From positions 555 to 64,554 of the forward strand of contig JACJWU010000008.1 in assembly GCA_020636995.1 (NCBI GenBank): a stretch of 64,000 nt of DNA, given 5' to 3'. Every line of letters starts with the position of its first letter. The stretch's first letter is position 1. Positions 31,768 to 59,572 of the stretch are shown here, piece after piece. Made by a program: the position numbers and the translations under genes. Source of the DNA: Actinomycetota bacterium. Lineage in GTDB: Bacteria > Actinomycetota > Actinomycetes > S36-B12 > UBA10799. The notes beneath the pieces were generated by a model. That model made no database searches and was not told the origin of the DNA. It worked only from the letters and a program-made list of their open reading frames with translations.

Positions 31768-31844
31768 ATCCGTGAGCGTTCCGGTCATCCGTGAGCCCTT
31801 GGGCGGCGTGGAACGGCTAACGGATTTCCGAAGTGCTAACGGAT
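31768..31844. repeat. Nested palindromic element family E: (ATCCGTGAGC)x2...(GCTAACGGAT)x2
   Basis: Arms at 31768 and 31787, and at 31816 and 31835 (19-nt period), between convergent genes. Confidence 0.7.
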
Positions 31845-31878
31845 GCCGCACTCCGTGGCAATCGTGGGATCCCGCCGA

Positions 31879-32724
31879 TCAGGTCCGCATCGCGCGCCGG
31901 GCCATGACCGACCCCACCGCGATGCCGGTGGCCAGCCCCGCCACCCCGACCGCGGGGGCCGTGATCTTGACGACCCGCCGCGCCGTCCGGTAGTCCCGCA
32001 CGGTCCAACCGTTGCGGCGGGCATGCACGCGCAGGGTGCGGTCGGGGTTGACCGCCACCGGGGTGCCCACCAGCGACAGCATCGGGATGTCGTTCGCGGA
32101 GTCCGAATAGGCCGCACACCGACTCAGGTCGAGCCCTTCCTGTTCAGCGAGCGCCTGCACTGCCTCCGCCTTTGCCTCGCCGTGCAACGGCCGACCCACC
32201 AGTCGGCCTGTGTATACGCCGTTCACCTGTTCGGAGACCGTTCCCAGGGCCCCCGACAGCCCCAGGTGTTCGGCGATGAGTTCGGCCAGTTCGATGGGCG
32301 CCGCGGAGACCAACCAGACGCGCTGCCCGGCATCGACGTGTCCCTGGGCCAGGGCCACGGTGCCCGGCCAGAAGCGATCGATCATGTACTCGTTGAAGAT
32401 CTCGCGCGTCAACTGCACGAGTTCGGCCTGATTACGGCCCTTCACTAGGGCGAGCGCCTCCTCGGTGACGTCATGGACGTCCTCCACGTGCTCCTTGCCG
32501 ACCACGATGAACCGGGTCTGTTTCCATACGAAGTCGAGGATCTGCCCTTTGGACAGGTATTTGTGCTTGGCCAGCCCGCGCGCCCAGTGGAACATGGACG
32601 CGCCGTGGATCAGTGTGTTGTCGATGTCGAAGAACGCGGCCGCCCGCGGATCGGCCTGCTGCGGCGCCGGTTCGGCGATCTCAGCGGTATCCCACTGTGG
32701 TTCTGCGGCCTTGTCCAACTCCAC
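31879..32724 (-). CDS. HAD-IB family hydrolase (SerB1-like)
   Basis: FFDIDNTL, LVSAAP, AYSDSANDIPML and AVNPD. Confidence 0.88.
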   Translation of the reverse strand: MELDKAAEPQWDTAEIAEPAPQQADPRAAAFFDIDNTLIHGASMFHWARGLAKHKYLSKGQILDFVWKQTRFIVVGKEHVEDVHDVTEEALALVKGRNQAELVQLTREIFNEYMIDRFWPGTVALAQGHVDAGQRVWLVSAAPIELAELIAEHLGLSGALGTVSEQVNGVYTGRLVGRPLHGEAKAEAVQALAEQEGLDLSRCAAYSDSANDIPMLSLVGTPVAVNPDRTLRVHARRNGWTVRDYRTARRVVKITAPAVGVAGLATGIAVGSVMARRAMRT

Positions 32725-32766
32725 CTGTGCAGGCTAGCCCAGCGGCAGGTGTGAAAGACTGCGGGC

Positions 32767-34257
32767 GTGGTGGCCAACCTTGCTGATTTGGTGCGCGTCG
32801 CGGCCGATTCGCGTCCTCGGCACCCAGCCATCGTGACCGATCAGCGGATCACGAGCTGGAGCGAGGTGGACTGGCAGGTGCGGGCGGTGGCCGGCGGGCT
32901 CATCGCTCGCGGGCTCGAACCGGGGGCACGCATCGGCATCCTGCAGCGCAACACCCTGGAGTTCGTGACGAGCTACTTCGGCATCCTGCGCGCCGGCATG
33001 GTGGCGGTCCCGTTCAATGTCGGCTACACGGCCGCGGAGTTGGCCCTCATGGTCTCCGACGTCGACGTCCAGCTCGTACTGGCGGATCCCGCGGTGGCGC
33101 CGGTGCTCGACGGCCTCGGTGTGGAGGTCATCAGGACCGGCACGGAGGAGTGGCGCCGATTCACCGTCGGCAGCGCGGCCCTGCCCACTGATCCCACCGA
33201 TCCCGAGTCGCTGGCGGTGCTGCTGTTCACCTCCGGCACCTCCGGTCGGCCCAAGGCCGCCATGCTGACCCACCGGGCCCTGGCTGCCAACCTCGATCAA
33301 CTCAGCGCCCTGACCGACCCGCCGGCGATGACCGCCGACGACGTGATGCTGTGCGTGTTGCCGCTGTTCCACATCTACGCCCTCAACGCCGCGCTCGGCA
33401 TGGTCGCCCGGCATGCCGCGACCATGGTCCTGACCCAACGTTTCGATCCCGGCGCGGCGCTTGCGGCCATCTCCAAACACCGCGTCACGAACGTGGCGGG
33501 TGCACCGCCGATGTACGTGGCGTGGTCTGCCGAGGAGGGACTCGGAGAGGCCCTCGCCGATGTCCGCCTGCTCGTTTCGGGTGCCGCCGCCCTGCCCCTG
33601 AACGTGATGGAACAGTTCGAAACGCTGGCCGGTCGGCCCATCTGGGAGGGCTACGGGATGACCGAGTGCTCCCCGGTCATCGCCGCCTCGTTGGTCTCCG
33701 GAACGCCGAAGCCGGGCTCCGTCGGCCGACCACTTCCGGGAATCGAACTGGAGTTGCGCGACGAGGACGGCGATCCGGTCGAGGAGGGTGATCCCGGGGA
33801 GATCTTCGTGCGGGGGGCCAACGTGTTCAGCGGCTACTGGCCGGAAGGCTCCGACGGCCCGGACGACGATGGCTGGTTCGCGACGGGGGATGTGGCCTAC
33901 GCCGACGACGACGGGGATCTGCGACTCGTCGACCGCCGGCGGGAGTTGATCATCGTGAGCGGTTTCAACGTATACCCGCGCGAGGTCGAGGACGCACTGT
34001 TGGGCATGGATGGCGTGCTGGAGGTGGCGGTCATGGGGGTGACGCACCCTTACACCGGCGAGGCGGTGAAGGCGTTCGTGGTGCCCGCGCCGGGTGCCGA
34101 CGTCTCCGGGGACGACGTCGTGACGTTCGCAGCCACCCGGCTCGCGCGGTTCAAGTGCCCGACCATCGTCGAGGTCGTGGACGGTCTGCCGCACTCGGTG
34201 ACCGGCAAGGTGGCCAAGGGCCGGCTGCGGGAGGGCTGGGAGGTGACCTCGCTCTGA
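32767..34257 (+). CDS. AMP-binding long-chain fatty acid-CoA ligase
   Basis: FTSGTSGRPK, EGYGMTE, TGD, SGFNVYPREVE and GKV.K. Confidence 0.92.
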   Translation: MVANLADLVRVAADSRPRHPAIVTDQRITSWSEVDWQVRAVAGGLIARGLEPGARIGILQRNTLEFVTSYFGILRAGMVAVPFNVGYTAAELALMVSDVDVQLVLADPAVAPVLDGLGVEVIRTGTEEWRRFTVGSAALPTDPTDPESLAVLLFTSGTSGRPKAAMLTHRALAANLDQLSALTDPPAMTADDVMLCVLPLFHIYALNAALGMVARHAATMVLTQRFDPGAALAAISKHRVTNVAGAPPMYVAWSAEEGLGEALADVRLLVSGAAALPLNVMEQFETLAGRPIWEGYGMTECSPVIAASLVSGTPKPGSVGRPLPGIELELRDEDGDPVEEGDPGEIFVRGANVFSGYWPEGSDGPDDDGWFATGDVAYADDDGDLRLVDRRRELIIVSGFNVYPREVEDALLGMDGVLEVAVMGVTHPYTGEAVKAFVVPAPGADVSGDDVVTFAATRLARFKCPTIVEVVDGLPHSVTGKVAKGRLREGWEVTSL

Positions 34258-34493
34258 GCGCGCGGGTCATCCTCGTGGGCAAGCCCGGCTGTCACCTGTG
34301 TGACGTCGCGCGGGAGGTCATCGACATGGTCTGCGCGCAGGCGGATACCGAGTGGGTGGAGGTGTCCATCACGGACGACCCGCGCCTGGCCCAGCGGTAC
34401 GCCGACCAGATCCCGGTGGTGCTGGTGGACGGCCGGGTGCACGACATCTACCGGGTGAACCCGGACCGGTTGCGGGACGCGCTTGGGGTGTGA
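34254..34493 (+). CDS. Glutaredoxin-like protein (DUF836 type)
   Basis: KPGCHLC, QIPVVLVDG; the start appears to be CTG in a CTGA overlap. Confidence 0.75.
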   Translation: MSARVILVGKPGCHLCDVAREVIDMVCAQADTEWVEVSITDDPRLAQRYADQIPVVLVDGRVHDIYRVNPDRLRDALGV

Positions 34494-34494
34494 G

Positions 34495-34626
34495 CGTACG
34501 GAACCGGTTGGCGAAGGCCGATTGCCAACCAGTTCCAGACACTAATCCGTTCGAAATGCCCCTTTTGTCGACCTCCAGCCGTACGGAACTGGTTGGAGCG
34601 GACCGGCCGTCAACCAGTTCTGTACG
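34495..34626. repeat. REP doublet family B (CGTACGGAACTGGTTG...CAACCAGTTC), copy 1
   Basis: Two hairpins starting at 34495 and 34580. Confidence 0.85.
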
Positions 34627-34747
34627 TTCGCGGGCTGGCAACACACGGGAGGACCGGTAACCGGACGGCCCCGCCCGCATTCCAGTTTGGGCCCGCTTGT
34701 GAAATCGGTAGCATGGAGATCCCGGCCCTATGACGAAACGGTGACAG

Positions 34748-35413
34748 GTGTCTCTCCCGCGACTTCGACGACGCGAGCTGCCCGACGCCACGATCGCCCG
34801 CCTGCCCCAGTACATCCGTTGCCTGTCCCAGCTGGAGAACGCCGGCCTGCGAACGGTCCACAGCGCCGACCTCGCAGCCCATGTCGGGGTCAGTGGTGCG
34901 GTCGTGCGCCGGGACCTCAGTTACGTGGGTAGCTACGGAACGCGTGGGGTCGGCTACCCGGTGTCCGAACTTCGCGACAGCGTCAACCGGGCATTGGGCC
35001 TGGCCACCGAACACCGCATGGTGATCGTCGGGGTGGGCCACATGGGGCGCGCGATCGCCGGCTACACGGGTTTCGCCGAGCGGGGTCTGCGGGTGGTGGG
35101 GTTGTTCGACATCGATCCGGAACTCATCGGTTCCAAAGCGGGGAATCCCGGCTCCGAGGTGCTGGAGATCATGCCACTGGCCGACCTGGCGGCGTTCGTG
35201 CACACCAACGACGTCGCCATCGCCGTCGTCGCGACGCCCGCCAGTGCGGCCCAATCCGTGGCCGACCTGCTTGTCGACGCCGGGATCACGAGCATCCTGA
35301 ACCTGTCTGCGGTGCACCTGAGCGTGCCCGACACCGTGGTGGTCCGGCCCGTGGATCTGGCCACAGAGATACAGATCCTTGCCGTACACGCGGCCGCCAG
35401 GGGGCGCCGATGA
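34748..35413 (+). CDS. rex: Redox-sensing transcriptional repressor Rex
   Basis: PDATIARLP.Y, DLSYVGSYGTRGVGY, Rossmann motif VGVGHMG; upstream of hemA. Confidence 0.92.
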   Translation: MSLPRLRRRELPDATIARLPQYIRCLSQLENAGLRTVHSADLAAHVGVSGAVVRRDLSYVGSYGTRGVGYPVSELRDSVNRALGLATEHRMVIVGVGHMGRAIAGYTGFAERGLRVVGLFDIDPELIGSKAGNPGSEVLEIMPLADLAAFVHTNDVAIAVVATPASAAQSVADLLVDAGITSILNLSAVHLSVPDTVVVRPVDLATEIQILAVHAAARGRR

Positions 35414-36705
35414 GTCTGCTGGTGATGGGGATCAGCCACCACAGCGCCCCGATCGAGGTGCTCGAACAGGTTGCGGCCATAGATGCCGAAGAGACCCTCC
35501 CGGTTCTCGGTGCCGGAGATGCGGTCGGCGAGGTTCTGCTGCTGTCGACATGTAACCGCATCGAGGTGTACACCGAGGTGTCGCGGTTCCACGCCGCAGT
35601 CGAATCGCTGACGGCGGTGCTGGCCAAGCACGCGGGGCTGGCGGCCGACCAGTTGTCCAAGCACCTCTACGTGCACTACGAGGACGCCGCGGTCCGCCAC
35701 GCGTTCCGGGTCGCCAGCGGCCTCGACTCGATGGTCGTCGGTGACGAGCAGATCCTGGGGCAGTTCCGGGAGGCGTTCAAGGTGGCAGTGGACCAGGGGC
35801 AGGCGGGCCGCAGCCTGCACGAGCTGGCGCAGAACGCGCTGCGCGTGGGCAAACGTGTCCACAGCGACACCGGAATCGGTCGCCATGGCGCGTCCGTCGT
35901 GGAGGTGGCGCTGTCCGAGGCCGGTCGTCACCATGGGACCCTGGCAGGCCGTCGGGTCGTCATCATCGGCTCCGGTGCGATGTCGTCGCTGGCCGCATCC
36001 GTCGCGTCGGCCGCGGGTGCGGGAGTCACCATCGTGGGGCGCACGGCCGCTTCCGTGCACCGCCTCGCGCAGGCTGTGAACGGCCATGGCGTGCAATTGG
36101 TCGACCTCGACGCCCATCTGCGGCACGCCGATGTGGTGGTCAGTGCCACCGGCGCCACGGGTCTGCTGATCACCAAGGAGCACTTGCAGAGGGTGCTCGG
36201 CGATGACCGCCCCGACGTGTACGTGTGCGACCTCGCCCTGCCCCACGACACGGACCCGCGGATCGCCGAGATCCCCGGGGTGCAACGGCTCGACCTGTCG
36301 GGGATCGCCGCGCTGCCACAGGCGCAGATCGCCGGGGAGAGTGTCACCACGGCCGAGTCCATCGTGCTGGAGGCCACAGCCGAGTTCCTGCAGAGGCAGA
36401 TGGGTGCCAAGGTCGAGCCGGTCGTGGTCGCGTTGCGGTCCCGGGCTGAAGCGGTGGTCGAGGAGGAGTTGCAGCGCCTGCGTCTGCGAAACCCTGATCT
36501 GTCCGAGGAACAGTTCGCCGAGATCGCGCGCGGCATGCGTCGGGTCGTGGCGACGCTTCTGCACACGCCGACGGTGCGCATGAAAGAACTTGCCGGCGAT
36601 CCGGGCGGCGACCGCTATGCGGCGGCACTGCATGCGCTGTTCGACCTTGATCCGGCTGCCGTGACCGCCCTGACTGAGAATCCCGGCGGGAGCCCGCGTG
36701 CCTGA
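35410..36705 (+). CDS. hemA: Glutamyl-tRNA reductase
   Basis: SHHSAP, LSTCNRIE, GLDSMVVGDEQILGQ and DLALPHD. Confidence 0.96.
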   Translation: MSLLVMGISHHSAPIEVLEQVAAIDAEETLPVLGAGDAVGEVLLLSTCNRIEVYTEVSRFHAAVESLTAVLAKHAGLAADQLSKHLYVHYEDAAVRHAFRVASGLDSMVVGDEQILGQFREAFKVAVDQGQAGRSLHELAQNALRVGKRVHSDTGIGRHGASVVEVALSEAGRHHGTLAGRRVVIIGSGAMSSLAASVASAAGAGVTIVGRTAASVHRLAQAVNGHGVQLVDLDAHLRHADVVVSATGATGLLITKEHLQRVLGDDRPDVYVCDLALPHDTDPRIAEIPGVQRLDLSGIAALPQAQIAGESVTTAESIVLEATAEFLQRQMGAKVEPVVVALRSRAEAVVEEELQRLRLRNPDLSEEQFAEIARGMRRVVATLLHTPTVRMKELAGDPGGDRYAAALHALFDLDPAAVTALTENPGGSPRA

Positions 36706-37597
36706 TTTCACTGTGGCCACGCGGGCCAGCGCGTTGGCGCGCGCACAAACGGGCTGGGTGCGGGACCGCCTCGCCGATCTGCTCGGCATCGAGGTGGCCG
36801 AACTGCTGGTCACGTCCGAGGGGGATGTGTCGGACGCTGCCCTGACCTCGTTCGGCGGACAAGGGGTGTTCGTCGCCCGGGTACGGGAGGCCGTCCTCGA
36901 CGGGCGTGCCGATGTGGCCGTGCACTCGATGAAGGACCTACCCACACTGCCGCATCCCGGGACCGCGATCGCGGCAGTGCCCACGCGCGAGGATGTGCGG
37001 GACTTCCTGGTCACAACCCGCGGCGGGCTGGACGATCTGCCGTCGGGGGCCTCAGTCGGTACCGGCTCGCCGCGCCGGGTGGCCTATCTGCGCCGCCGTC
37101 GTCCGGACCTGCGGGTCGTCGCCATCCGGGGCAACGTGGATACGCGGGTCGCTCGGGTCAAGGACGGCGATCTCGATGCCGTCGTGGTGGCCACCGCTGG
37201 CTTGATCCGACTCGGGCTCACACCCCCCGGGGCGCCGTTGGCCGTCGACGACATGCTGCCGGCGGTGGGACAGGGTGCCTTGGCTGTGGAGATGCGCGCC
37301 GATGACGCCCGCATGCCTCGCGTCAGGGGCCTCGATGATGCCGGGACCCGGGCCGAGGTCATCGCAGAACGCGCCCTGCTCGCCGGACTTAGGGCAGGAT
37401 GTAGCGCGCCCGTGGGGGCAACTGCCACCGCGACGGACGACCGACTGGACCTACGGGCGGCTGTGCTGTCCCTGGACGGCTCACAGATGTACGAATGCAC
37501 GACGAACGGGCCGCTGTCCGATGCCGAAGGTGTCGGGCGACGGGCCGCTGACCTCCTGATCGGTCAAGGGGCCGATCAGTTGTTGGGAGAGATGTGA
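36698..37597 (+). CDS. hemC: Hydroxymethylbilane synthase
   Basis: TRASALARAQ, VHSMKDLP, GTGSPRR, RGNVDTR and AGCSAP. Confidence 0.96.
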   Translation: MPDFTVATRASALARAQTGWVRDRLADLLGIEVAELLVTSEGDVSDAALTSFGGQGVFVARVREAVLDGRADVAVHSMKDLPTLPHPGTAIAAVPTREDVRDFLVTTRGGLDDLPSGASVGTGSPRRVAYLRRRRPDLRVVAIRGNVDTRVARVKDGDLDAVVVATAGLIRLGLTPPGAPLAVDDMLPAVGQGALAVEMRADDARMPRVRGLDDAGTRAEVIAERALLAGLRAGCSAPVGATATATDDRLDLRAAVLSLDGSQMYECTTNGPLSDAEGVGRRAADLLIGQGADQLLGEM

Positions 37598-39180
37598 TGA
37601 AGAACCGCAAACCAGTGCCCGCCGTGGCGTTGATCGCCGGAGGCGCCGGGGATCGCGAACTGCTCAGCGTGCGCGCCGCCGCCATGCTCGACTCCGCCGA
37701 AGTCGTGGTCTGCGACCCGGAAGTCACGGGCCTGCTGACCGGCCTCGACGTCGAGGTGCTCGACATCCCGACGGCCCCGACCGACGCCCCTGCAGTGGCG
37801 AAGGCGCTGACCGAGCAGGCGCGGGCGGGCCGGCACGCGGTGCGGATCTTCGCCGGTGATCCGGTGCTCGACGGCCGCGTCTTGGCCGAGGCCAAAGCCC
37901 TGCATCGCTCCAAGGTCCCGTTCGAGATCCTCCCCTGCGCCGCCGGGATCTCCGGCATGGCCGCCTACGCCGGGATCGGACTGACGGGCCCCAAGGCCAA
38001 GCAGTTGCGGGTCGTCGACCTGCTGTCCGGCGAGGTCGACAGCGAGACGCTGGCAGACGCCACTGCGACGCTGGTGATCCGCAACGCCGCCGACTCCGCG
38101 GCAGCCATCGCCAAGGCCGCCCTGGCCGCCGGGCGGACCCCCGGGACCGGCCTGGTGATCGTACGCAGCGGGACGACCGTCGAACAGCAGACGCTCATCA
38201 CCACCCTCGGTGACGCCGCCGCGGACATCAAGGCCGCGAAACTCACCGGCAACGGTGACGTCTTCCTCGGCGACGGGGTGTCCACTGCGGGAGCGCTGGG
38301 ATGGTTCGAGAGCCGGCCCCTGTTCGGCTGGCGCGTACTGGTTCCGCGCACGAAGGATCAGGCCGGCGAGCTCTCGGCCAGGTTGCGTGTGTTCGGCGCG
38401 GTGCCGGTCGAGGTGCCGACCATCAGTGTCGAGCCACCACGCACGCCCCAGCAGATGGAGCGCGCGATCGAAGGGATCGAGGCCGGGCGCTACCAGTGGA
38501 TCGCGTTCACAAGTGTCAACGCCGTGCGGGCGATCCGGGAGCGGTTCGAACAGCGGGGGCTGGATGCCCGCCACCTCGCCGGGCTGAAGATCGCGGCCAT
38601 CGGTGAGAGCACCGCCGAGGCTCTGCGGGAGTTCGGGGTGCGTGCGGATCTGGTGCCGCCGGCGGAGAGCCAGTCCTCGGCCGGGCTGCTGGAGGTGTGG
38701 CCGGAGCGGGACGCCGAACTCGACCCGATCGGCCGGGTGTTCCTGCCGCGTGCCGACATCGCCACGGAGAAACTGGTGGCCGGCCTGGAGGGCCTCGGCT
38801 GGGAGGTCGACGACATCACCGCGTACCGGACCGTACGTGCCGCCCCGCCGGCTGCGGAGATCCGGGAAGCCATCAAGACCGGTGGCTTCGACGCGGTGGT
38901 CTTCACCTCGTCGAGCACGGTGCGCAACCTGGTCGGCATCGCCGGCAAGCCGCACGCCTCGACAGTGATCGCCGCCATCGGCCCGGAGACGGCGGCCACT
39001 GCGGTGGAGCATGGCCTGAAGGTTGCCGTGCAGCCTGCGCAGGCGAAGATCGAGCCGCTCGTGGCGGCTCTCGCCGAGCACGGCGAGCAGTTGCGGCAGG
39101 CCGCGCTCGACAACGGTGAGCGCACCTGGCGGCCGTCGAAGCGGCGAGGCGCCGGACGGCGGCGGGCCGCGAAGTCATGA
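37594..39180 (+). CDS. hemD: Uroporphyrinogen-III synthase with N-terminal methyltransferase-like domain
   Basis: RPLFGWRVLVPRT, FTSVNAV, AIG..TA and FTSSSTV. Confidence 0.9.
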   Translation: MMKNRKPVPAVALIAGGAGDRELLSVRAAAMLDSAEVVVCDPEVTGLLTGLDVEVLDIPTAPTDAPAVAKALTEQARAGRHAVRIFAGDPVLDGRVLAEAKALHRSKVPFEILPCAAGISGMAAYAGIGLTGPKAKQLRVVDLLSGEVDSETLADATATLVIRNAADSAAAIAKAALAAGRTPGTGLVIVRSGTTVEQQTLITTLGDAAADIKAAKLTGNGDVFLGDGVSTAGALGWFESRPLFGWRVLVPRTKDQAGELSARLRVFGAVPVEVPTISVEPPRTPQQMERAIEGIEAGRYQWIAFTSVNAVRAIRERFEQRGLDARHLAGLKIAAIGESTAEALREFGVRADLVPPAESQSSAGLLEVWPERDAELDPIGRVFLPRADIATEKLVAGLEGLGWEVDDITAYRTVRAAPPAAEIREAIKTGGFDAVVFTSSSTVRNLVGIAGKPHASTVIAAIGPETAATAVEHGLKVAVQPAQAKIEPLVAALAEHGEQLRQAALDNGERTWRPSKRRGAGRRRAAKS

Positions 39181-48475: not shown

Positions 48476-48490
48476 GGGTCGAGTATACCC

Positions 48491-49138
48491 CTAGTGGGTA
48501 TCTGCGCGGGTCGTTCGACGGCTGCCTTCCACCGCGAGGAGGCTGCCGGTCACGAACACTGCGACCACATTGGTGAGGATGATCGGTACGTCCGGACGGA
48601 AGATGCCGTACGAGAGCCAGAGCAACTGTCCTGTGAGCAGGAGGCCGAGCGTGGCGAGCGAGACCTCGGACGGCAGTCCGGCGCGCCGACGGCTCAGCGA
48701 CTCGACCAGTTGCGGCACGGTGGTCAGCAATCCGCACGTGACCCCGATACTGGCGGACACCCCGGCCGGCAGCTGCAGCAGGAGGGCCACGATCGCCGCG
48801 GCCACCAGTGCGGGGACTGCGATCGCCGCCGGCCAGGGCCATGCCCGCTGCCTGACCAGCAGGAGCATGACGACCGGCAGCGTCGTGCTCAGGAACGGGA
48901 TGTTTCCGACGATGATGCCCGGGGCCTGCACGAGCAGTCCGTACGCGAACCAACTGGCACCGGACAGCGCGAAGATCATCCAGGTCAGCAGGCTCACTCC
49001 CGCTGCGCTGCGGTCGCGCAGGATGCGGGCGATCTGCGGCAACGACATCGACGTCATCAGCACCGAACCCGCGTACGCGAGCCACTCGACGTTCACCGCC
49101 CTCACGATACTGATGGGGCGAGGCCCGGTCCCGCTCAT
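48491..49138 (-). CDS. Two-repeat PQ-loop / SWEET-like transporter
   Basis: LPQ...S..GVS...W..YG...N occurs twice, with an intervening TM helix. Confidence 0.75.
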   Translation of the reverse strand: MSGTGPRPISIVRAVNVEWLAYAGSVLMTSMSLPQIARILRDRSAAGVSLLTWMIFALSGASWFAYGLLVQAPGIIVGNIPFLSTTLPVVMLLLVRQRAWPWPAAIAVPALVAAAIVALLLQLPAGVSASIGVTCGLLTTVPQLVESLSRRRAGLPSEVSLATLGLLLTGQLLWLSYGIFRPDVPIILTNVVAVFVTGSLLAVEGSRRTTRADTH

Positions 49139-49231
49139 GCGTGTCCATGCCGGCCAGCCACGGCCCGCGGCATTGCCCGGTCCCGCTCATGCGTGCCCAT
49201 GCCGCCAGCGCGGCCCGCGGCATTGCCCGGT
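49124..49231. repeat. Tandem duplication (52 and 50 bp) abutting the left end of element A5
   Basis: CCCGGTCCCGCTCATGCGTG...GGCCCGCGGCATTG at 49124 and 49176; includes the PQ-loop start codon. Confidence 0.85.
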
Positions 49232-49235
49232 TGTT

Positions 49236-49348
49236 CCGGTTAGAGATCGGCATCTTGGTTAGTCGGCGGCAGGTTGGTTAGAGTCCCACGGCCGTATAGG
49301 ACTAACGGGAGTGCTGTATGTCTAACCGAGATGCCGATCTCTAACCGG
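49236..49348. repeat. Family A palindromic element, copy 5 (113 bp)
   Basis: Same terminal inverted repeats and core, same orientation. Confidence 0.95.
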
Positions 49349-49567
49349 GATGAGCGGTGACCACCCCCGGCGCAACTGCTCCACCGCTCGATCGCAGGAG
49401 GTCCCCGGCAATCGGGTTGCTCTTGTCGTCGTGGATCTCCAGGTACGCCACCTGGGAGTTCCGCCGCCATGACCAACCCGCCTGGACATCACACCTAGGA
49501 CTCACGGGACTGCCGCCCGAACTGTGATGGACGGCTGGCCCGCTGGAAGCGGCAAGGGTTACGCTGT

Positions 49568-49662
49568 ACGGGCAAGGGGAGCTCGGGGCAGCCGGGCTGA
49601 GAGGGTCACCGACGCGCGTGGCCGACCCACCGAACCTGATCTGGGTAATGCCAGCGGAGGAA
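49568..49662 (+). ncRNA. TPP riboswitch
   Basis: GGGGAGC...CTGAGAG...GACCC...ACCTGATCTGGGTAATGCCAGCGGAGG, directly upstream of a thiamine ABC operon; SD lies inside the aptamer 3' end. Confidence 0.93.
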
Positions 49663-49664
49663 CT

Positions 49665-50687
49665 GTGAAGAAACTGCTGCTCCTGCCTCTCGTGGCCGCA
49701 CTGGCGGCGTGCTCCTCGACCGCACCCGAGATCGAATCGTCGCCTCCGACTGAGGTCGTGCTCGTGACCCATGACTCCTTCTCGGTGTCGAAGAAGGTGC
49801 TGCGGGAGTTCAGCGAGCAGACCGGCTACGAGGTGACAATCGTGCAGAACGGGGACACCGGTCAGGTCGTGAACTCCGCGATCCTGTCGGCAGGTGTCCC
49901 GCAGGGGGACGTGCTGTTCGGAGTCGACAACACCTTCCTGAGCCGGGCCCAGGAAGGCGGGGTGTTCGAGGACTACCAAGCCGCGGGCGCGCCCGAGCAG
50001 CTCGCCCAGGCCGCGCCGGGTGTCACCCCGATCGACACCGGCGCGGTGTGCCTGAACTACGACCGGGAGTACTTCGCGGACTCCCCGCCGCCGGCGACGC
50101 CTGCGGACCTGGTGAAGCCGCAGTACAAGGACCTCACGGTGGTGCAGAACCCCGCCACCTCGTCGCCGGGGCTGGCCTTCCTGCTGTCAACCGTGTCGCG
50201 TCAACCCGATTGGCAGACCTACTGGGAGCAGTTGAAGGCCAACGGCGTGAAGGTCGTGGACGGCTGGGAGAACGCCTACTACCAACAGTTCTCCGGCGGA
50301 TCCGGAGAAGGCACGCGGCCGATCGTCGTCTCGTATTCGACGAGTCCGGCCGCTGAGGTCATGTTCAGCGAAGACCCGGAGGCGCCGGCCCCAACAGCCA
50401 ATGTCGACTCCGACTGCTTCCAGCAGGTGGAGTACGCCGGTGTCCTGGCCGGGGCGCGCAATCCGGAAGGGGCGCGGGCCTTCATCGACTACATGCTCTC
50501 CGCCACTTTCCAGGACGACATCGCCGAGCAGATGTTCGTGTATCCGGTGGTACCCGACGCAGCGGTACCGCCGGCATTCGAGGAGTACTCCGCGCCGCCC
50601 ACTGATCCTGTGGTGATGGCACCCGAACAGATCGCCGCCGGGCGTGAGGAATGGATCGACGAGTGGTCGGCGATCATGGGTCAGTAG
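49665..50687 (+). CDS. thiB: Thiamine ABC transporter substrate-binding lipoprotein
   Basis: Lipobox LAAC, THDSF, GVDNTFL, PATSSPG.AFL and SYSTSP. Confidence 0.92.
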   Translation: MKKLLLLPLVAALAACSSTAPEIESSPPTEVVLVTHDSFSVSKKVLREFSEQTGYEVTIVQNGDTGQVVNSAILSAGVPQGDVLFGVDNTFLSRAQEGGVFEDYQAAGAPEQLAQAAPGVTPIDTGAVCLNYDREYFADSPPPATPADLVKPQYKDLTVVQNPATSSPGLAFLLSTVSRQPDWQTYWEQLKANGVKVVDGWENAYYQQFSGGSGEGTRPIVVSYSTSPAAEVMFSEDPEAPAPTANVDSDCFQQVEYAGVLAGARNPEGARAFIDYMLSATFQDDIAEQMFVYPVVPDAAVPPAFEEYSAPPTDPVVMAPEQIAAGREEWIDEWSAIMGQ

Positions 50688-52273: not shown

Positions 52274-53148
52274 TGCTGCGGTTGCAGGCTGTCACCGCCT
52301 CCTACGACCAGCCCGTCCTGCGCGGTATCGATCTGAACGTGGCGCGGGGGGAGATCGTGTGCATCCTCGGTCCCAGCGGTGGCGGCAAGTCCACGCTGTT
52401 GCGCGCCGTGGCCGGGCTGGTGCCCCATGGCGGGCTGATCGAGGTGGCGGGAGAGGCGATGGTCGGTGTGCCGCCACACCGCCGGGGTGTCGGCATGATG
52501 TTCCAGGACGACCTGCTCTTCCCGCACCTCGACGTTGCGGGCAACGTGGGTTTCGGGCTGCGACCGGCCGATCCCGCGCGGGTCGCGCAGATGCTGGATC
52601 TGGTTGGCTTGTCCGGCTTCGGGCCGCGTGGCGTCGACACCCTCAGCGGGGGGCAGGCCCAGCGTGTGGCACTTGCGCGGGCGCTGGCCCCGCAGCCACG
52701 CCTGCTGCTTCTCGACGAGCCGTTCGGCGCCCTCGACGTGGTCCTGAAGGCGGGTTTGGTCCTTGACGTCCAGCGGGTTCTGCGGGAACTGGGAATGACT
52801 GTTCTGGCTGTCACACACGACCGGCAGGAGGCCTTCACGCTGGCCGACCGGGTCGCGGTCCTGCGGGACGGGACGTTGGTCCAGGTCGGCACACCGGACG
52901 AACTGTGGAACGAACCTGCGGATATGTACGTCGCGCGCCTCGTGGGGCTGTCGGTACTCGAGGGCCGGGCCTATCGTCCCGAGCAGATCCGGATGTCCGC
53001 GGGTGGACCGTGGTCGGCGCGGGTCACGGGCCGTACCTTCCGCGACGGACACCACCTGGTGTCGGCGCGGGTGGCGGGGGAGACAGTCGTGTTCGTCTGT
53101 GACCGGGCCCTCGAACCCGGAACCGAGGTGCGCCTGGCGGTCACCTAG
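52273..53148 (+). CDS. thiQ: Thiamine ABC transporter ATPase
   Basis: GPSGGGKST, LSGGQAQR and LLLDEPF. Confidence 0.88.
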   Translation: MLRLQAVTASYDQPVLRGIDLNVARGEIVCILGPSGGGKSTLLRAVAGLVPHGGLIEVAGEAMVGVPPHRRGVGMMFQDDLLFPHLDVAGNVGFGLRPADPARVAQMLDLVGLSGFGPRGVDTLSGGQAQRVALARALAPQPRLLLLDEPFGALDVVLKAGLVLDVQRVLRELGMTVLAVTHDRQEAFTLADRVAVLRDGTLVQVGTPDELWNEPADMYVARLVGLSVLEGRAYRPEQIRMSAGGPWSARVTGRTFRDGHHLVSARVAGETVVFVCDRALEPGTEVRLAVT

Positions 53149-53501
53149 TCCGCTGCCGGCGAGCGGCGCCGGAGTACCAGTGCTGCGATCCCGCGCCATC
53201 CGAGCAGGGTCAGCGCCAGGAATCCGGCCGCGACCAGGATGAACGTGAACGCCGTGCCATCGCCGCCGACCCTGCGCAGAAGCATGCCGCCGACCAGCGT
53301 GACCAGCCAGATCACGAAACCCGCACGCAGGGACTCCGCGGGCTTCAACGGGATCGCGATCACCCACCCGATGGCCAGTGCCGCCACGAAGGGTGCTGCC
53401 ACCCGCACCAGGGAGTCGTCTTCGCCATGGGACGAGATGCCAACCGCCACGAAGGCGACGACGCACACCAGGTCCAGGATCGCTGCAGCCCACGTCTTCA
53501 C
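53145..53501 (-). CDS. DUF3054-like membrane protein
   Basis: D.V.V..F...G..SH, four TM segments, GWR. Confidence 0.7.
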   Translation of the reverse strand: MKTWAAAILDLVCVVAFVAVGISSHGEDDSLVRVAAPFVAALAIGWVIAIPLKPAESLRAGFVIWLVTLVGGMLLRRVGGDGTAFTFILVAAGFLALTLLGWRGIAALVLRRRSPAAD

Positions 53502-53550
53502 GCCCCCGACTGTAGTTGCGCGATGTCAGTGGCGGCCGCAGGCTGGGCGG

Positions 53551-53925
53551 GTGGCGATCCACGAGTTCATCGGCGTGTACCACGCGGACGGCGGTCTGCG
53601 GGGCGAGGTGCGGTACGTGGTCGGACATCTGCTGGGACGCACCGAGTGCGCCCTGTGCGACATCACCCATTCGCCGATTCGCCGCAAGAAGCAGTGGGAC
53701 GGTTTCGTTGCAGACCTAGGCGTGCCTTTCCGCCTTCTGCACCTCAACGAGATGCCGCCGGACGTCGCATCGGCCGTGAGCCGTGTCGGCAGCCCCCTCG
53801 TGCTCGCCCGGACCGAGAGCGGCCTGCAGGTTCTGCTTTCGCCGCGCGAACTGGCCCGGCTCGACGGTTCGGTCGACGCATTCGCGGCGGCACTGGCCAC
53901 CGCTTCAGCCGCGATCACGCTGTGA
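53551..53925 (+). CDS. Conserved hypothetical protein (GVY.ADG...C.LCDITH)
   Basis: Coding-like frame with conserved-looking Cys/His motif. Confidence 0.65.
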   Translation: MAIHEFIGVYHADGGLRGEVRYVVGHLLGRTECALCDITHSPIRRKKQWDGFVADLGVPFRLLHLNEMPPDVASAVSRVGSPLVLARTESGLQVLLSPRELARLDGSVDAFAAALATASAAITL

Positions 53926-53947
53926 GTGTTCGCTAGCGTTGGCGTCC

Positions 53948-55110
53948 GTGGACCCCATCCGGCGCACCGAGACGTGGTTCTCACGCAACGGCTTCCCGCA
54001 GTTCGTCGACGGGTACAACTCGGCCGAACACATCTGGACCCGGGCGCTGCCGGCCATGGCGGTGGTGGCCGCGGTGCAACTGGTGTCCGCCCTGTCGCTG
54101 GCCGTGACCAACGGCACCCGCCTGGTCCCGGTACTGGTCCTGGTGGTGCCCGGGCTGGTGCTGGTGAGCTGGGGTTTCTGGTCGAAGTCGCGGCGCGGGT
54201 ACTGGTTCGCCCCTGCGGATCGCGTGGGCTGGCCCATCCTTGCGGGCTTCCTGGCAGTGGGGGTGGTGGCTGAACTCGTCCAGATCGGGCAGCGTGTGGA
54301 CGGCGAGGTGGTCGATTGGCTGTCCGTGTTCGGAGCCTTGATCGTGCAGGCCCTGCTCCTCGGGCTGATCTACCTGTTCACTCGCTTCGCGATCCTGGCG
54401 ATGATCGTCTGGGCGGTCCGGCAGACGGTCCGAAGTGCAGGTGACCTGTACGTCGTCACCACGAAGGCGTTGCCCCTGCTGCTGATCGTGCTGATCGTGC
54501 TGTTCATCAACACAGAGGTATGGCAGGTGGCAAGTAGCCTCGACTCGCTGTTGCTGTGGGCCAGCAGCGGGTTGCTCCTGCTGCTCGGGGTGCTGGTCAC
54601 GGTGGAGCGCACGCATGATCAGATCGCGATGCTGCAGCAGGACGGGCCTGCGGACGACGTGCGCGCGGCCTGTCGCCGGACTCCCCTTTCCGGCGTGGTC
54701 GATGGGGTCGAGCAGTTCGTCGGGCCCCAACTGGGGCGACCGCAGCGGCGCAACATGCTCATCTCCGCACTTGCCACGCAGGCCATCCAGGCCGCGTTGA
54801 TCGGCATCCTGGTATGGCTGTTCTTCATCGTTTTCGGGGTTGTGGCGATCACGTACCCGGTTCAGGCCGCGTGGGTGGGAGACCTCGGTGCCACTGACGT
54901 GTTCTTCACCATCGGCGACGACCATGTGCTCTCCCGTGCACTGATCCGGGTGGCCACGTTCCTCGGTGCGTTCGCGGCGTTCTACACGACCATCTACGCC
55001 TCGAGCGATCCTGTGTACCGGGCGTCCTTCTCCGATGACGCGGGGCGTCGCTTCAGAAGGCCGTGGATGTCCGGCGGGCGTACCTGACGCTGAAGACGGC
55101 CGATGGCTGA
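53948..55110 (+). CDS. Integral membrane protein with one apparent frameshift near 55043
   Basis: RALP/KALPLLL...FINTEVWQ motif; adding one G restores ...ASLQKAVDVRRAYLTLKTADG-stop overlapping the next ATG. Confidence 0.7.
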
Positions 55111-55525
55111 CCGGGGACGGGATGCCACCGGCCGGCCGCTGAACCCACGGGCGAGGGACAGCCTCGGCCGCCCACTGCCCACCGGCGCCCGGGGTCGCGC
55201 CCCTGCCGGAGCCCATCGACCCTTCGCCGGAAGCGGTGGTCGCGCTGGTCGGCCGGCTACTCGACGAGGGCCTGCCGTTCCAGGCTCACGAAGCCCTCGA
55301 GGCAGCCTGGAAATCGGCACCGGGCGAGCAGCGCGCGGCCTGGCAGGGGATGGCGCAACTCGCGGTGGCCCTGACCCACGCGCTGCGGGGCAATCCACCG
55401 GCGCCAGGCGCCTTCGGCAGCAGGCGGAGGTGAATCCCGCGCCGGGAGGGCTGCCGCGGGTGGCCGACGGTCTGCGGGAGCGGCTGCGCGGGTTGTGTGA
55501 CGACGCGGGTGCGCTGGCAGAGTGA
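55103..55525 (+). CDS. DUF309-like protein, split by apparent frameshifts
   Basis: RD..GRP.N.R.RD.LGRPLP in one frame; LLDEGLPFQAHEALEAAWK...WQGMAQLAVALTH in another. Confidence 0.7.
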   Translation: MADRGRDATGRPLNPRARDSLGRPLPTGARGRAPAGAHRPFAGSGGRAGRPATRRGPAVPGSRSPRGSLEIGTGRAARGLAGDGATRGGPDPRAAGQSTGARRLRQQAEVNPAPGGLPRVADGLRERLRGLCDDAGALAE

Positions 55526-55531
55526 CATTGG

Positions 55532-55663
55532 CGTACGGAACTGGTTGGGGTCCAGGCTGCGCCAACCAGTAACACGCGGTTGCCGGTCGACGGTGTCCGC
55601 CAACTGCGGCGTGTCGCGTACGGAACTGGTCAGGGCCGAGGGTGCGCCAACCAGTTCCGTACG
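55532..55663. repeat. REP doublet family B, copy 2
   Basis: Hairpins starting at 55532 and 55617, with the same arms as 34495/34580. Confidence 0.85.
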
Positions 55664-55665
55664 GC

Positions 55666-57254
55666 TCAACTGTTCATCCGCTTGTAGAAGCCCTTCACCG
55701 ACCCGTAGAGCTTCTTGTACTCGCGCATGTGATGGGCGTACACCTCACGGTCGGCCGGGTCGGGTCGAAGGTCCGCGCGACGGGTACCCGCGCTGCTGCC
55801 TCGTCCAGGGTGATCTCACCCATGCACACCAGGGCCCACAGCGCGATCCCCGCAGTTGTGCGTTGAGTGGGTCCGCCACCTGCTCGATGCGACGGTCCAG
55901 TGTGGAGGCGATGATCGAGCACCACAGGTCGGACTGCGCGCCACCACCCATGATCCGGATGCTGGGCACCTTACGTTTGACGAATTTTTCGTAGTAGCCG
56001 AAGAGCCAGTTGATGTTCAGCGCCACCCCTCCATGACGGCCCGCACGAGCATCGCCCGATCGGTCCGCAGAGAGAGGTTGAGGAAAGCCGCGCGCAAGTT
56101 CTTGTCCTCGATCGGGCTGCGTTCCCGGCCAGCCAGGGAGTGAAGATGACGCCCTCCGAGCCGGCCGGGGCCGTCGCCGCCAATTCGGTGAGCGCGGCGT
56201 ACGTCGGCTGTTCGGTCACCGGCGCCGCACCGTCGGCACCGATCCCGCTGCCGCCTCCCAGTAGTCCGTCGGAAGGCGCGATGATCTGCTCCCCAGCCAC
56301 GACAGCGCCGCGCCGCCGGTCTCGATGTTGTTACCCACGATGTTCATGTCGGGGCTCAGGCCTGGCAGCGTCGCCATCCCGTGCAGGATATCGGTGCGCT
56401 TGAACGGAACCGGCGCGGAGAGCCACGCGGTGGTCGACACCGCCATATGCGTGTCGTAGGCCTTGACTGCTCCACTACCCACGATGGCCGCGTGGATGTC
56501 CGGGATGCCACAGGCGACGGGCACCCCGGGCTTGAGGCCCAGACGTTCGGCCGGTTCGTCGAGCAGCGGACCCTGGATCGAGCCGGTAGGGATCAACTCG
56601 GGCAGCAACTCGGGTTTGCGGCCCGACCGCTTGACGAGGTCTGCGACGTACTCGGGCTTGCTGCCGATGTGGTTGTCGGTGAGCCACGAGGCGGTCATCG
56701 AGACCGGCGTGGCGGCCGCCCGCCCGTGTGAGCAGGAAGGCGAGGTAGTCGACGGGTTCCAACAGGACCCCTGCAGCGCTCGCCGATGTCGGACAACTCG
56801 TTCTGCAGAAGCAACGCGTGCCCGGTCGGGTCGGCGCCGGCAGGGTTCGGGCGCCGCCGGTGATCCGGACCCGGCGGCAGCACCTTGTGGGCGCGTACCC
56901 GCCGAAACTGATCGGACCGCCGAGGATGCGCGCGACGTTGCGCCGAGACCGCGTGTCCCACCACAGAATCACTGGTCCGGCAGGATCGTCATCGGGACCG
57001 ACAGGGACGGTGGAACCCCATTGCCCGGTGATCCCGATCGCGACCAGATCGTCCTTCGGGACATCGGCGATGACCTCAGCCACGGCTGCGCGCAGCGCGA
57101 CCTCCCATTCGATGGCGTCCTGGGTGGCGGTGCCGTCAAGGCCGACGTAGACGGACACCGGCTTGAACGCGGTCGCCAGTATCGTGCCGGTAAACTCGAC
57201 CGCGGCCACTTTCAGGCCGCCATTGCCGAGGTCGATCCCCAGGACCCACCTCAC
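55666..57254 (-). CDS. FGGY-family carbohydrate kinase (xylulokinase-like), multiple apparent frameshifts
   Basis: LGIDLG...K, ITGQW..TVPV, W.DTR, EPVDYL, G.PD, FTPWL.G and MGGGAQSDLWC fragments in successive frames. Confidence 0.75.
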
Positions 57255-58641
57255 TCGGGGGCCACCTCATGCATGGCGTCCAGCACCCCGGACATCAGGG
57301 TGTTGAGCGTCTCGTTCGCCTGTGGGTGTGACCGAAGCCGTACATGGCGCCACTGGCGGCCGGCGTACCCACGTTGTCCATGGCGTACTGCACCGCCTCT
57401 CGCAGGTCGGACAGGAACGCCTCGGCCACACCGGGTCGGGTGTTCGGGCGGGTCACGCAGAAGTGCAGGGCGGCCGGCAGTTGCAGGGCGTTCATGCGCC
57501 AACCGGCCTTCTTCAGCGCGTCGTTGACCAAGTAGATGTCGAGGTCGTCGCGATCGGACATGAAGGCGATGAGGAACTTGGGGTCGCCGATGACCTGCAG
57601 GCCGTCCATCGCCTCGATGCCCTCGCGGATCGTCGTGGCGGTCTGCATGATCCCGCGAGCCGCCTCGAGGTAGCCGGCACGCCCGGTCGTCACCATCCCG
57701 GCCCACGTCGCGGCGATCAGGCCTCCGGAGCGCGAGCCCGCCAGGCCCGGCGAGAGGTAGAGCCCGCCAGGCCAGTCCGGGTAGGTGAAGTACTGGTGCC
57801 GGCGCAGGTCCTTGTTGCGGTAGGACAGTGTGGAGGTTCCTTTGAGGGCATAGCCGTACTTGTGTGTGTCGGCGGAGATCGACGTCACCCCGGGGACGCG
57901 GAAGTCCCACAGCGGGATGTCGTAGCCGAGTTCTTCTGCCCAGGGCCAGAGCATGCCGCCGAGGCAGCCGTCCACGTGCATCCCGATCCCGTGCTCCTGG
58001 GCCAGCGCGGCGATGTCCTCGATCGGGTCGATCAGTCCATGGGCGTAGTCCCCGGCCGATCCGACCAGAGCGATGGTCTGGTCGTCGATCAGTTCGGCCA
58101 TCGCGTCGACGTCAGCGGTGTAGGCGTCGGTCAGCGGGGCGTGGCGGACCTCGATGTCCATCCAGTACGCACCCTTGTCCAGCGCCACGTGCGCCGTGAT
58201 GGGCATGACCACGTTGGGCTTTGTGACACCGCGCTCGCGGGCGGCCTCCCGGTAGGTGTAGAGCGCGGTGATCAGGCTTTCGGAACCGCCGCTGGTCACC
58301 ACCCCACAGGCGTTCGCGTCGCCGTGCAACAGGTCGAGGACCATGGCCACGATCTCGCCCTCGAACTTCGTGGCCGACGGGTACATGTCGCGCTGCAGGA
58401 CGTTCGCGTGGGAGAACTGGGAGAAGACCTCGCCGAGGTACGCGTAGTGCTCGTGGTCACCGCTGTACAGCGAGCCCGACACCTTTCCCTCATCGCCGGT
58501 CGCGTCCTCGCGCTGGGCCATTGAGGTGATCTCGGCCAGCACGTCGGCGCGATCGCGGGGTTCGTCGGGGATCCGCCGGTAGTTGGTGGTCTCCTTGCGG
58601 TACGGGTAGAAGCCGTCGATGAAGTCGTCGAAGTCGCTCAC
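57251..58641 (-). CDS. PLP-dependent sphingosine-1-phosphate lyase-like / group II decarboxylase, one apparent frameshift near 57325
   Basis: VSGSLY, TSGGSESL, HVDGCLGG, SADTHKYGY..KG.S and GSRSGG. Confidence 0.85.
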
Positions 58642-58725
58642 GCGTCCGAGGTTAGTCGCAGTGGCCCGGTGTTGCGTCGGCGCGCAGGACTGCCATCGAG
58701 CCGCCTCAGGTGGCAGTCTGGAGGC

Positions 58726-59493
58726 ATGCGCAAGACCTTCCCGATAATCCTGATCCTGCTCGGCGTAGTGATGTTCGGAGTGGGTCTGGCACAGGCCGTC
58801 GGTGGCGTCACGTCCACCATCGGGTCGATCGCCTCCACCACGATGATCAGCAACCCGTTCACCGCCCCGGGATCCACGGAGGTGGAGTTGAGCCCGGGGA
58901 CGTACACGGTCTACGAGAACATCGGGTTCGCCGGCTCCAACCCTGGCAACGTGACCGTGGATCCGGAGTCGCTGACCGTGTCCGGGCCCGACGGCGAGCG
59001 GATCAGTACGACATGCATCTCCTGTGGCGCGTCGAGTTCCACTCTGACCCTCGGTTCCACCACCTACATCGGGGTCATCTCCTTCACCGCGCCCGAACAG
59101 GGTAAGTACACGGTTGCGGCCACTGACGACGGCGGGGCCAACCTCGTCGTGGGGCCGTCCTTCGCCGAGGCCATCGGCGGGATCGTCAATGAAGTCGGTG
59201 GCGCCTTCGGCTGGGTGGGATTGGCGATCCTCGGCGGCTTCCTCGCTGTCGCGGGCATCATCTGGTTGATCGTGGCGGCGGTGACCGGGTCGGGATCCAA
59301 GCCTGCTCCCGTGCCGGGCATCCCGTATTACGACGCTGCGGCCGGCCAAGGTCCAGTTGTGCAGGCCGGGGGCGCCGAAATGCCGGTCGGTGGACCGACC
59401 CCGGTCGGCTCCTGGTACCCCGACCCGGAGGACCCCAGCCAGTTGCGCTGGTGGGACGGGCGGCAATGGACCGATCAACGCCGGCCGCGCTGA
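58726..59493 (+). CDS. Membrane protein with C-terminal DUF2510 motif
   Basis: GSWYPDPEDPSQLRWWDGRQWT; N-terminal and internal TM helices. Confidence 0.82.
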   Translation: MRKTFPIILILLGVVMFGVGLAQAVGGVTSTIGSIASTTMISNPFTAPGSTEVELSPGTYTVYENIGFAGSNPGNVTVDPESLTVSGPDGERISTTCISCGASSSTLTLGSTTYIGVISFTAPEQGKYTVAATDDGGANLVVGPSFAEAIGGIVNEVGGAFGWVGLAILGGFLAVAGIIWLIVAAVTGSGSKPAPVPGIPYYDAAAGQGPVVQAGGAEMPVGGPTPVGSWYPDPEDPSQLRWWDGRQWTDQRRPR

Positions 59494-59502
59494 TCGGTGT
59501 TG

Positions 59503-59572
59503 GGTGGGGTTCGTGCAGCCAGGTGGGGTTCGTCGGGCGCTGAACCCCATCGGTCTACCTGAACCCCATCGG
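59503..59572. repeat. Family C element, copy 2, with nested double arms
   Basis: GGTGGGGTTCG twice and TGAACCCCATCGG twice, each with a 19-nt period. Confidence 0.85.

Follow-up and report, generated by a model that had tools for sequence, protein, structure and literature searches.

Why should palindromic repeats with different sequences, dispersed through one bacterial genome, be built to the same internal spacing? The question is raised by a stretch of 64,000 nucleotides (nt) from an Actinomycetota bacterium (GTDB lineage Bacteria; Actinomycetota; Actinomycetes; S36-B12; UBA10799; GenBank assembly GCA_020636995.1, contig JACJWU010000008.1, positions 555 to 64,554 of the forward strand), hereafter 'the window', in which three families of palindromes, termed A, C and E, consist of short arms nested in two inverted series. 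The original prediction, made from the letters of this stretch, was that the arms of all three families recur every 19 nt, and that this points to a geometric constraint such as arrayed protein-binding sites, or else to a common duplication mechanism. Here we report that the 19-nt spacing is real and far beyond chance, and that the period is a trait of a clade of associated nucleases in which an AbiEi-type winged-helix-turn-helix (wHTH) part is joined to a DUF559 domain. We lean, with slightly better than even confidence, towards a reading in which the palindromes are private DNA partners of winged-helix/nuclease paralogs, with arms that serve as arrayed binding sites and a period that is set by the protein lineage.

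The predicted coordinates are exact for families E and C, which appear in the window as follows:

31768..31844 (+), family E palindrome: two plus two arms, ATCCGTGAGC at 31768 and 31787, GCTAACGGAT at 31816 and 31835
59503..59572 (+), family C palindrome: two plus two arms, GGTGGGGTTCGT at 59503 and 59522, CTGAACCCCATCGGTC at 59540 and 59559
26410..26441 (+), minimal family C copy: a single arm per side, GGTGGGGTTCGTCGGGCGCTGAACCCCATCGG

The family E copy sits between convergent acyltransferase and haloacid dehalogenase (HAD) hydrolase genes, and ATCCGTTAGC, a near-complement of ATCCGTGAGC, lies on the (-) strand at 31816 and 31835, such that the spacing is 19 nt on both sides. The nested family C copy begins 10 nt past the stop codon of the gene for a DUF2510 protein; its core recurs 19 nt apart on either side, as TGGGGTTC at 59505 and 59524 and as GAACCCCA at 59542 and 59561. 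Family A, with the cores GGTTAG and CTAACC, has five window copies (near 2.9, 4.0, 21.5, 21.7 and 49.3 kb), and stands on both flanks of a nuclease gene, nucA:

2876..2990 (+), family A, upstream of nucA: GGTTAG at 2879, 2898 and 2917; CTAACC at 2943, 2963 and 2982
3090..3998 (+), nucA: 302 amino acids, an AbiEi-type winged-helix N-terminal part and a C-terminal DUF559/Vsr-like PD-(D/E)xK nuclease domain (Pfam PF04480)
3971..4104 (+), family A, downstream of nucA: three left arms (the first degenerate, CCGTTAG) and four right arms at 4038, 4058, 4077 and 4096
21476..21592 (+), family A: three plus three arms, spacing 19, 19 / 26 / 20, 19
21659..21775 (+), family A: three plus three arms, 183 nt after the preceding copy (21476..21592)
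49235..49350 (+), family A: three left and two intact right arms, one right core mutated to CTAACG

The left arms of these copies are spaced 19/19 nt and the right arms 20/19 nt, as had been read from the sequence, and GGTTAG has 32 matches in the window where 6.3 are expected, a number reached in none of 100 shuffles. The copy downstream of nucA lies in direct orientation relative to the upstream copy, and the nucA stop codon falls inside one of its arms.

The same spacing extends to the genome as a whole, a 2.99-Mb assembly of 17 contigs (67% G+C, 91.5% complete). Family A has 82-84 copies, whose same-strand arm spacings are 19 nt in 219 cases, 20 nt in 86 and 18 nt in two; the 20-nt spacings are confined to fixed places, and the remaining spacings are multiples that derive from mutated arms. 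Family E occupies 47 loci in a rigid ++-- arrangement (spacings of 19, 27 and 19 nt), with 77 of 83 spacings at 19 nt and zero at 18 or 20, and the approximately 25 loci of family C yield 43 of 51 spacings at 19 nt. The distance between the innermost cores differs among the families (10 nt in C, 19 nt in E and 20 nt in A) while the arm period is unchanged. De novo repeat discovery, which had been proposed as a check together with a spacing histogram, produced a sharp 19-nt peak rather than a broad distribution: Tandem Repeats Finder reports 126 arrays at period 19, a non-coding peak and the sole large one whose period is not divisible by three, and nearly all of these arrays fall to families A, C and E when the repeat units are clustered.

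The gene bracketed by family A offers a candidate for the origin of this period. Homologs of nucA carry PF13338 (AbiEi_4) together with PF04480, and an AlphaFold model of the protein (predicted local distance difference test, pLDDT, 91.9) has as its best PDB fold match Rv2827c, an AbiEi-type repressor from M. tuberculosis (1zel; probability 1.00), while at the C-terminal end the match is to the Vsr-like catalytic domain of the homing endonuclease I-Bth0305I (3r3p) with a template modelling (TM) score of 0.69 normalised on the target. The catalytic D/E/D/K residues (D211, E222, D224 and K228) do not vary across 31 homologs. In the genome, a profile run against all open frames detects exactly seven such nuclease paralogs (tblastn with nucA alone gave four), and the same palindrome stands on both flanks of five of the seven: family A at nucA, E at nuc2, D at nuc4, a plain hairpin at nuc5 and G at nuc7, with families D and G described below. 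The gene nuc2 lies at C16:65131-66126, 577 nt past the window end, and its product is 47.5% identical to that of nucA. The check proposed at the outset, for nuclease paralogs flanked by families C and E, succeeds for E, which brackets nuc2, and finds none for C in this assembly.

Comparison across genomes connects the period to the nuclease tree. Specifically, 14 genomes of the genus, with 2-11 paralogs each, contributed 75 loci and a maximum-likelihood tree of 80 proteins, and most of these nucleases have the same repeat on either side. In the clade of 17 that holds nucA and nuc2 (Shimodaira-Hasegawa-like approximate likelihood ratio test, SH-aLRT, 99), nested 19-nt arms occur in 16 of 17 members, the contig of the one exception being truncated; every 31-32 nt case in the tree belongs to a separate clade of 13 (SH-aLRT 100), and the remaining clades have single-arm hairpins or nothing. 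Period labels, which are partly hand-curated here and in the broader tree described next, change six times on the 80-protein tree versus a mean of 22 for shuffled labels, with none of 200 shuffles as low. Beyond the genus, a scan of 185,579 species genomes returned more than 512 relatives, of which the best 80 were analysed. Calls were based on flank-to-flank local alignment and a lag score; an exact detector of 8-mer/6-mer quadruples proved overly stringent, failing to pick up family E and many relatives, and automatic classes drawn from the best self-palindrome per flank were noisy, with spurious lags of 8, 12, 15 and 46, and were not used alone. A repeat shared by the two flanks is present at 81 of 150 testable Actinomycetota nuclease loci, and an objective lag scan gives periods of 19 (17 loci), 20 (seven), 31 (three) and 32 (one) and no others, where shuffled controls gave any call in only 4 of 1620 cases and at scattered lags. 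All 34 loci of period 19 or 20 fall in one branch (101 rows) of a 146-protein tree, and none in the other 45. Carriers of the 19-nt period include cultured Arthrobacter cupressi, Pseudarthrobacter, Cellulomonas, Nostocoides, Janibacter melonis and Microbacterium hominis; the period is 20 nt in Sanguibacter, Nocardia and Naasia, and direct arrays of 21 nt occur in Cellulosimicrobium.

The period is constant within the 19-nt clade across some ten different cores, which include GGTTAG, GGTGAG, GCGTTAG, GTTGGAG, GTTAGAG and ATCCGTGAGC as well as GCGTTGGA, CGGGAAGGAAG, GTTGGTTGACG, ATCCGTTAG, TCGCCGGAA and CTGCGCACATC. Positional orthologs of nucA, whose flanking genes are identical in kind, can share only 46-52% identity with it and have unrelated cores. 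At a much shorter distance, the ortholog in the nearest species (locus L001, G002:C22; 85-88% identity) has GGTGAG in place of GGTTAG in every arm of both flanking palindromes, with the spacers and centre of the window region 2876-4104 retained. Six of the 34 amino-acid differences between nucA and this ortholog fall within 16 residues of the predicted winged helix, a cluster that was spotted post hoc. The sequences are suggestive of a concerted specificity switch, of which the winged-helix cluster may be the counterpart in the protein. The idea that the spacing is common to unrelated sequences survives in part: the cores do differ, but the A and E nucleases are paralogous and many of the cores in the 19-nt clade are variants of G-T-T/G-A-G, so that shared descent contributes to the shared period.

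The genome contains at least six palindrome families, and the 19-nt design belongs to three of them. A further family, D, was found by a de novo scan, has at least 30 copies and is also present near the end of the window:

60205..60333 (+), family D palindrome: TTGTCACGAAGGTG / CACCTTCGTGACAA, nested, with a period other than 19 nt

Arms of family D consist of TTGTGACG followed by TTGTTG or AAGGTG, and their spacing across the genome is 32 nt in 31 cases and 31 nt in four, from which it follows that 19 nt belongs to some of the nested palindromes of this genome and not to all. Families F and G are plain hairpins in tandem, with periods of 61 nt (F) and 82-83 nt (G). The generalization that distinct families share a 19-nt nested design is thus correct for A, C and E, incorrect for the nested family D, and does not extend to the plain hairpins of F and G. 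With regard to the individual families, the outer right arm of the family D window copy (60248-60333) has been duplicated with a 37-nt period, a whole-unit duplication, where the normal period is 31-32 nt. Family F comprises 17 arrays of the form GTTGACCGTCAGACACCCA...TGGGTGCC...GACAAC (e.g. C13:203781-204020), and family G, which brackets nuc7, has the form GCAGATTGCG...CGCAATCTGC (e.g. C12:74496-74792).

The elements are almost entirely intergenic, with copies inside predicted genes in 0 of 82 cases for A, 1 of 33 for E, 1 of 18 for C and 0 of 30 for D. They favour convergent over divergent gaps (26 versus 14 for A and 19 versus 2 for D, against a background of 380 versus 378), and their orientation relative to transcription (26 versus 15) has no significant bias. 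As DNA, single strands fold into ladder-like hairpins of -34.4 kcal/mol in A (z -7.05; the 21476..21592 copy), -21.6 in E (z -3.2) and -17.2 in C (z -2.2), and in C and E the pairing is limited to the cores. Family E shows no sign of target-site duplication, as direct repeats at its borders are no longer than with re-paired flanks, and Rfam gives no match to the elements in the window. The sole Rfam match in the window is a thiamine pyrophosphate (TPP) riboswitch (RF00059, 57.2 bits, 49565-49680), approximately 220 nt downstream of a family A copy. Conservation in family A reaches beyond the arms, with some 45 nt on the left semi-conserved, and a near-palindromic motif resembling CTGTCTGGACAG precedes the first arm by 3 nt in 18 of 82 copies and follows the last arm at a distance of 3-81 nt in 21 of 82 (e.g. 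in the flank 21776-21810).

Copy number is species-specific: family A has 82 copies here, genome G006 has about 100 arrays of GAGGTTAGAG, all of those listed with 19/19 spacing, and in G002 there is only a handful of GGTGAG arrays, the family being unexpanded. Sites that hold a nuclease of the 19-nt clade in sister species have no such gene in the present genome, and solo palindromes of its own families are found there instead, as in the case of the G005/G006 nuclease (L015/L010), whose syntenic site has solo E and C elements. The gene-less syntenic sites are:

C14:39600-40080, E plus C
C14:83690-84030, D
C14:180950-181210, an E-like element

How might a protein lineage hold such a period? In the mechanism that we propose, each family would be the private DNA partner of one paralog of the AbiEi-type winged-helix plus Vsr-like (DUF559, PD-(D/E)xK) nuclease, and each arm, made up of a core of 6-11 nt and a spacer, would be the binding site of a single protomer. 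AbiEi and Rv2827c bind as one molecule per inverted repeat of ~23 bp, on operators in which two or four such repeats are separated by fixed gaps (PMC7319586), which makes one protomer per arm the natural model; that the arms are arrayed sites of this kind appears, from sequence, to be the most likely interpretation. The arms would form two converging head-to-tail arrays around a centre, and the distance from site to site would be set by the packing of neighbouring protomers on the DNA. This would give a ruler of 19 nt (20-21 nt in some lineages) in the nucA/nuc2 branch and of 31-32 nt in the nuc4 branch, with single arms elsewhere; the core sequences would co-diversify with the protein as the ruler stays, and arms would be added or removed as whole units through slippage. 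Copying of the palindromes into other intergenic sites is probably driven by the nuclease as well, as REP-associated tyrosine transposases (RAYTs) are thought to do for REPINs, the hairpin-forming elements built from repetitive extragenic palindromic (REP) sequences.

A bolder version of this mechanism, which we put forward tentatively as possible rather than probable, would make these systems a widespread, undescribed class of Actinomycetota repeat and enzyme. Here the nucleases would polymerise head-to-tail on phased sites with a protein-encoded ruler of 19-21 or 31-32 bp, and the two converging arrays would come together, on duplex DNA or an extruded hairpin, as a nucleoprotein complex able to cut the palindrome and copy it anew. 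Core specificity would evolve fast with the ruler fixed, the whole being an analogue of REPIN-RAYT with an unrelated enzyme, and a DnaA-box-like motif might couple it to replication. This motif, G-T-T-(G/A)-TCCACA-G-A, occurs at window positions 3025-3040 (CGCGTTATCCACAGAA), between the upstream palindrome and the nuclease start. Among 148 loci it is found on the coding strand in 75 and on the other strand in 27, at a median of 56 nt from the conserved protein region, and in only three of the 148 downstream flanks. It may act in the promoter or tie the gene to replication control.

Several observations weigh against the arms being binding sites whose period is set by the nuclease. Binding by protomers, cleavage and nuclease-driven spread are all steps that we infer from co-location and co-variation, and a step of 19 bp corresponds to about 1.8 helical turns, which would leave neighbouring sites on different sides of B-DNA, so that a simple flat array is not expected. 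No repeat common to both flanks was found at 69 of the 150 nuclease loci, flank alignment gave no clear shared repeat at nuc3 and nuc6, and the profile search of this 91.5% complete assembly found no cognate nuclease for families C and F. In the broad tree many relatives of the 19-nt loci are without the period, either because the trait is frequently lost or because the detector misses it, and the hand-curation of labels noted above touches both trees. Within any one family a constant period follows trivially from unit duplication, and the 61 canonical copies of family A, being at least 90% identical, are uninformative on covariation or constraint. The more informative families are the diverged ones. 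Family E combines paired cores of 90-99% conservation with spacers of 40-70%, and no spacing is shifted by one base; family C has conserved spacers that are not complementary, several positions showing 0% pairing, so the register is held without base pairing. That the spacing is constant in these diverged E and C copies while the innermost gap varies favours selection on the spacing itself. The geometric constraint that was originally suggested is therefore upheld insofar as the period tracks the nuclease clade and persists through changes of core and spacer, and the binding of arrayed protein is the part that stays conjectural.

The period might alternatively be a frozen accident, in which an ancestral 19-nt unit was inherited, hairpin symmetry disfavoured one-sided insertions and deletions, and slippage did the rest, with a nuclease that may associate with the repeats but sets no spacing. 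Gain and loss of whole units does have a part: arms per side range from 1 to 10 (in family A usually three on the left and 2-8 on the right), and of 54 orthologous sites in metagenome contigs, all filled in both, two differ by exactly one arm of 19/20 nt. Tandem arrays of 31 nt (2647-2892), 30 nt (21405-21483) and 52 nt (49123-49231) directly adjoin three family A copies on their left, and the first is built from the flank and first arm of the copy at 2876. Such reuse of arms beside several copies, the real common descent of the design seen in the paralogous A and E nucleases and their related cores, and the drift of the period to 20 or 21 in some lineages are all as an inherited accident would have it. 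The common duplication mechanism offered by the original prediction likewise explains the variable number of arms, which change as whole 19/20-nt units, but not the same period across families. What makes inheritance plus slippage unlikely, in our estimation, is that across families of repeats and of actinobacteria the cores and spacers are no longer recognisably alike with the period still at 19-21, that the heavily substituted spacers of family E leave zero spacings of 18 or 20 in 83, that hairpin symmetry cannot hold register in the unpaired spacers of family C, and that the sister nuclease clade has a distinct and equally discrete period of 31-32 nt.

It is also conceivable that the sites are bound only as private operators and decoys, with the nuclease repressing its own gene through the flanking palindromes and dispersed copies, spread by recombination or slippage, titrating the protein in a system free of nuclease mobilisation. 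The palindrome does stand directly before the gene at most loci, proteins of the AbiEi family are autorepressors on multi-repeat operators (PMC7319586), and many relatives have palindromes only beside the gene, as with the unexpanded GGTGAG family of G002. We consider this account quite improbable nonetheless, in that a palindrome follows the gene as well, a position in which no operator is needed, 47-100 copies per family occupy unrelated intergenic sites in some species, the invariant catalytic residues argue for DNA cutting, and the genome has solo palindromes of its own families at sites that hold nuclease genes in sister species. Least credible, and by our estimate very improbable, is that these are ordinary miniature inverted-repeat transposable elements (MITEs) of an unidentified transposase, or terminators or stabilisers that act as RNA, beside which the nucleases lie incidentally. 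An intergenic location with enrichment at convergent gene ends and the stable hairpin folds would suit either role, but family E has no target-site duplication, the Y1 HUH transposase of RAYTs (PF01797) has no match in the genome in a search that does match control genomes, orientation to transcription is not significantly biased, Rfam is silent, and family-specific bracketing that recurs at 81 of 150 loci across the phylum is hardly incidental. We return to palindromes that are private partners of the nuclease paralogs as the reading that best accommodates the data.

To our knowledge, the origin and spread of interspersed palindromic repeats are understood only for the REP/RAYT pairs of Proteobacteria, and we know of no driver for the many such repeats of high-GC Gram-positive bacteria. 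The repeats described here have a design that carries a readable signature of their partner, a discrete spacing that follows the protein tree and that spans Micrococcaceae, Intrasporangiaceae, Cellulomonadaceae, Microbacteriaceae, Nocardiaceae and uncultured lineages. This leads to a concrete prediction of one protomer per 19-bp arm with spacing-dependent cooperativity, for which nature offers specificity swaps (e.g. GGTTAG versus GGTGAG between 85-88% identical orthologs) and cultured carriers exist in Arthrobacter, Cellulomonas and Janibacter. If correct, the proposed mechanism would represent a second, mechanistically different symbiosis of repeat and enzyme, and would provide programmable winged-helix/nuclease modules with a defined footprint.

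Among established classes, a clustered regularly interspaced short palindromic repeat (CRISPR) array is ruled out by the 19-nt period and the lack of unique spacers, RAYT-driven REPs by the missing Y1 transposase, an AbiE toxin-antitoxin system by the lack of any match to the AbiEii toxin (DUF1814, PF08843) anywhere in the genome, and a known RNA family by the lack of an Rfam match to the elements in the window. A plasmid iteron origin is likewise ruled out by the at least 82 chromosomal loci, the inverted arrays and the absence of a rep gene among the neighbours examined. Our search of the literature found no published description of this repeat-and-nuclease system, of an AbiEi-DUF559 pairing, of DUF559 with palindromic elements of this kind, or of REPIN-RAYT in Actinobacteria.

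Partial parallels are nevertheless instructive. Plasmid iterons are direct repeats of 17-22 bp bound by Rep initiators, it is thought with one winged-helix protomer each, and the present elements resemble them in their phased direct repeats of ~19-22 bp with DnaA-box-like motifs nearby; they differ in being chromosomal and dispersed, in forming inverted arrays and in having no rep gene or origin context. The ends of Tn7 and Mu each hold several similar transposase sites of ~20 bp in direct order, one end being inverted relative to the other, and TnsA is a PD-(D/E)xK nuclease. Arrayed ~20-bp sites and a PD-(D/E)xK nuclease are common to both, and TnsA is among the weak fold matches of nucA, but the elements here are 70-130 nt long and have no cargo, no DDE transposase and no target duplications, and the nuclease gene is bracketed by complete elements rather than enclosed by two half-ends. 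The modelled catalytic domain shares its fold with the Vsr-like EDxHD homing endonuclease I-Bth0305I (3r3p), yet the gene is not in an intron or intein, the flanks are complete palindromes instead of a split target, and an AbiEi-type module is attached. AbiEi and Rv2827c have what is predicted to be the same N-terminal fold, and operators of inverted repeats directly upstream of their own gene; here, in contrast, there is no AbiEii partner, a C-terminal nuclease is present, the arrays converge (>>> <<<) where theirs are tandem pairs, and sites occur also downstream of the gene and at up to ~80 other loci.

The closest counterpart in behaviour is the REP/REPIN-RAYT system known from Pseudomonas and Enterobacteria (Bertels and Rainey 2011, PMC3116915). 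Both systems consist of short palindromes that lie outside genes and number in the tens to hundreds, with inverted units that form hairpins; in both, several families of distinct sequence occur per genome, each with its own single-copy enzyme gene bracketed by repeats, and tandem clusters and the lack of target-site duplication (in family E here) are further points in common. The differences are that the enzyme here is a winged-helix plus PD-(D/E)xK (DUF559/Vsr-like) nuclease and not a Y1 HUH transposase, that each half of an element is a phased array (19-21 or 31-32 nt) and not a single REP, and that the host belongs to the Actinomycetota. The system works like REPIN-RAYT but fails the defining test of the enzyme, and it has the DNA-binding fold of AbiEi without the toxin.

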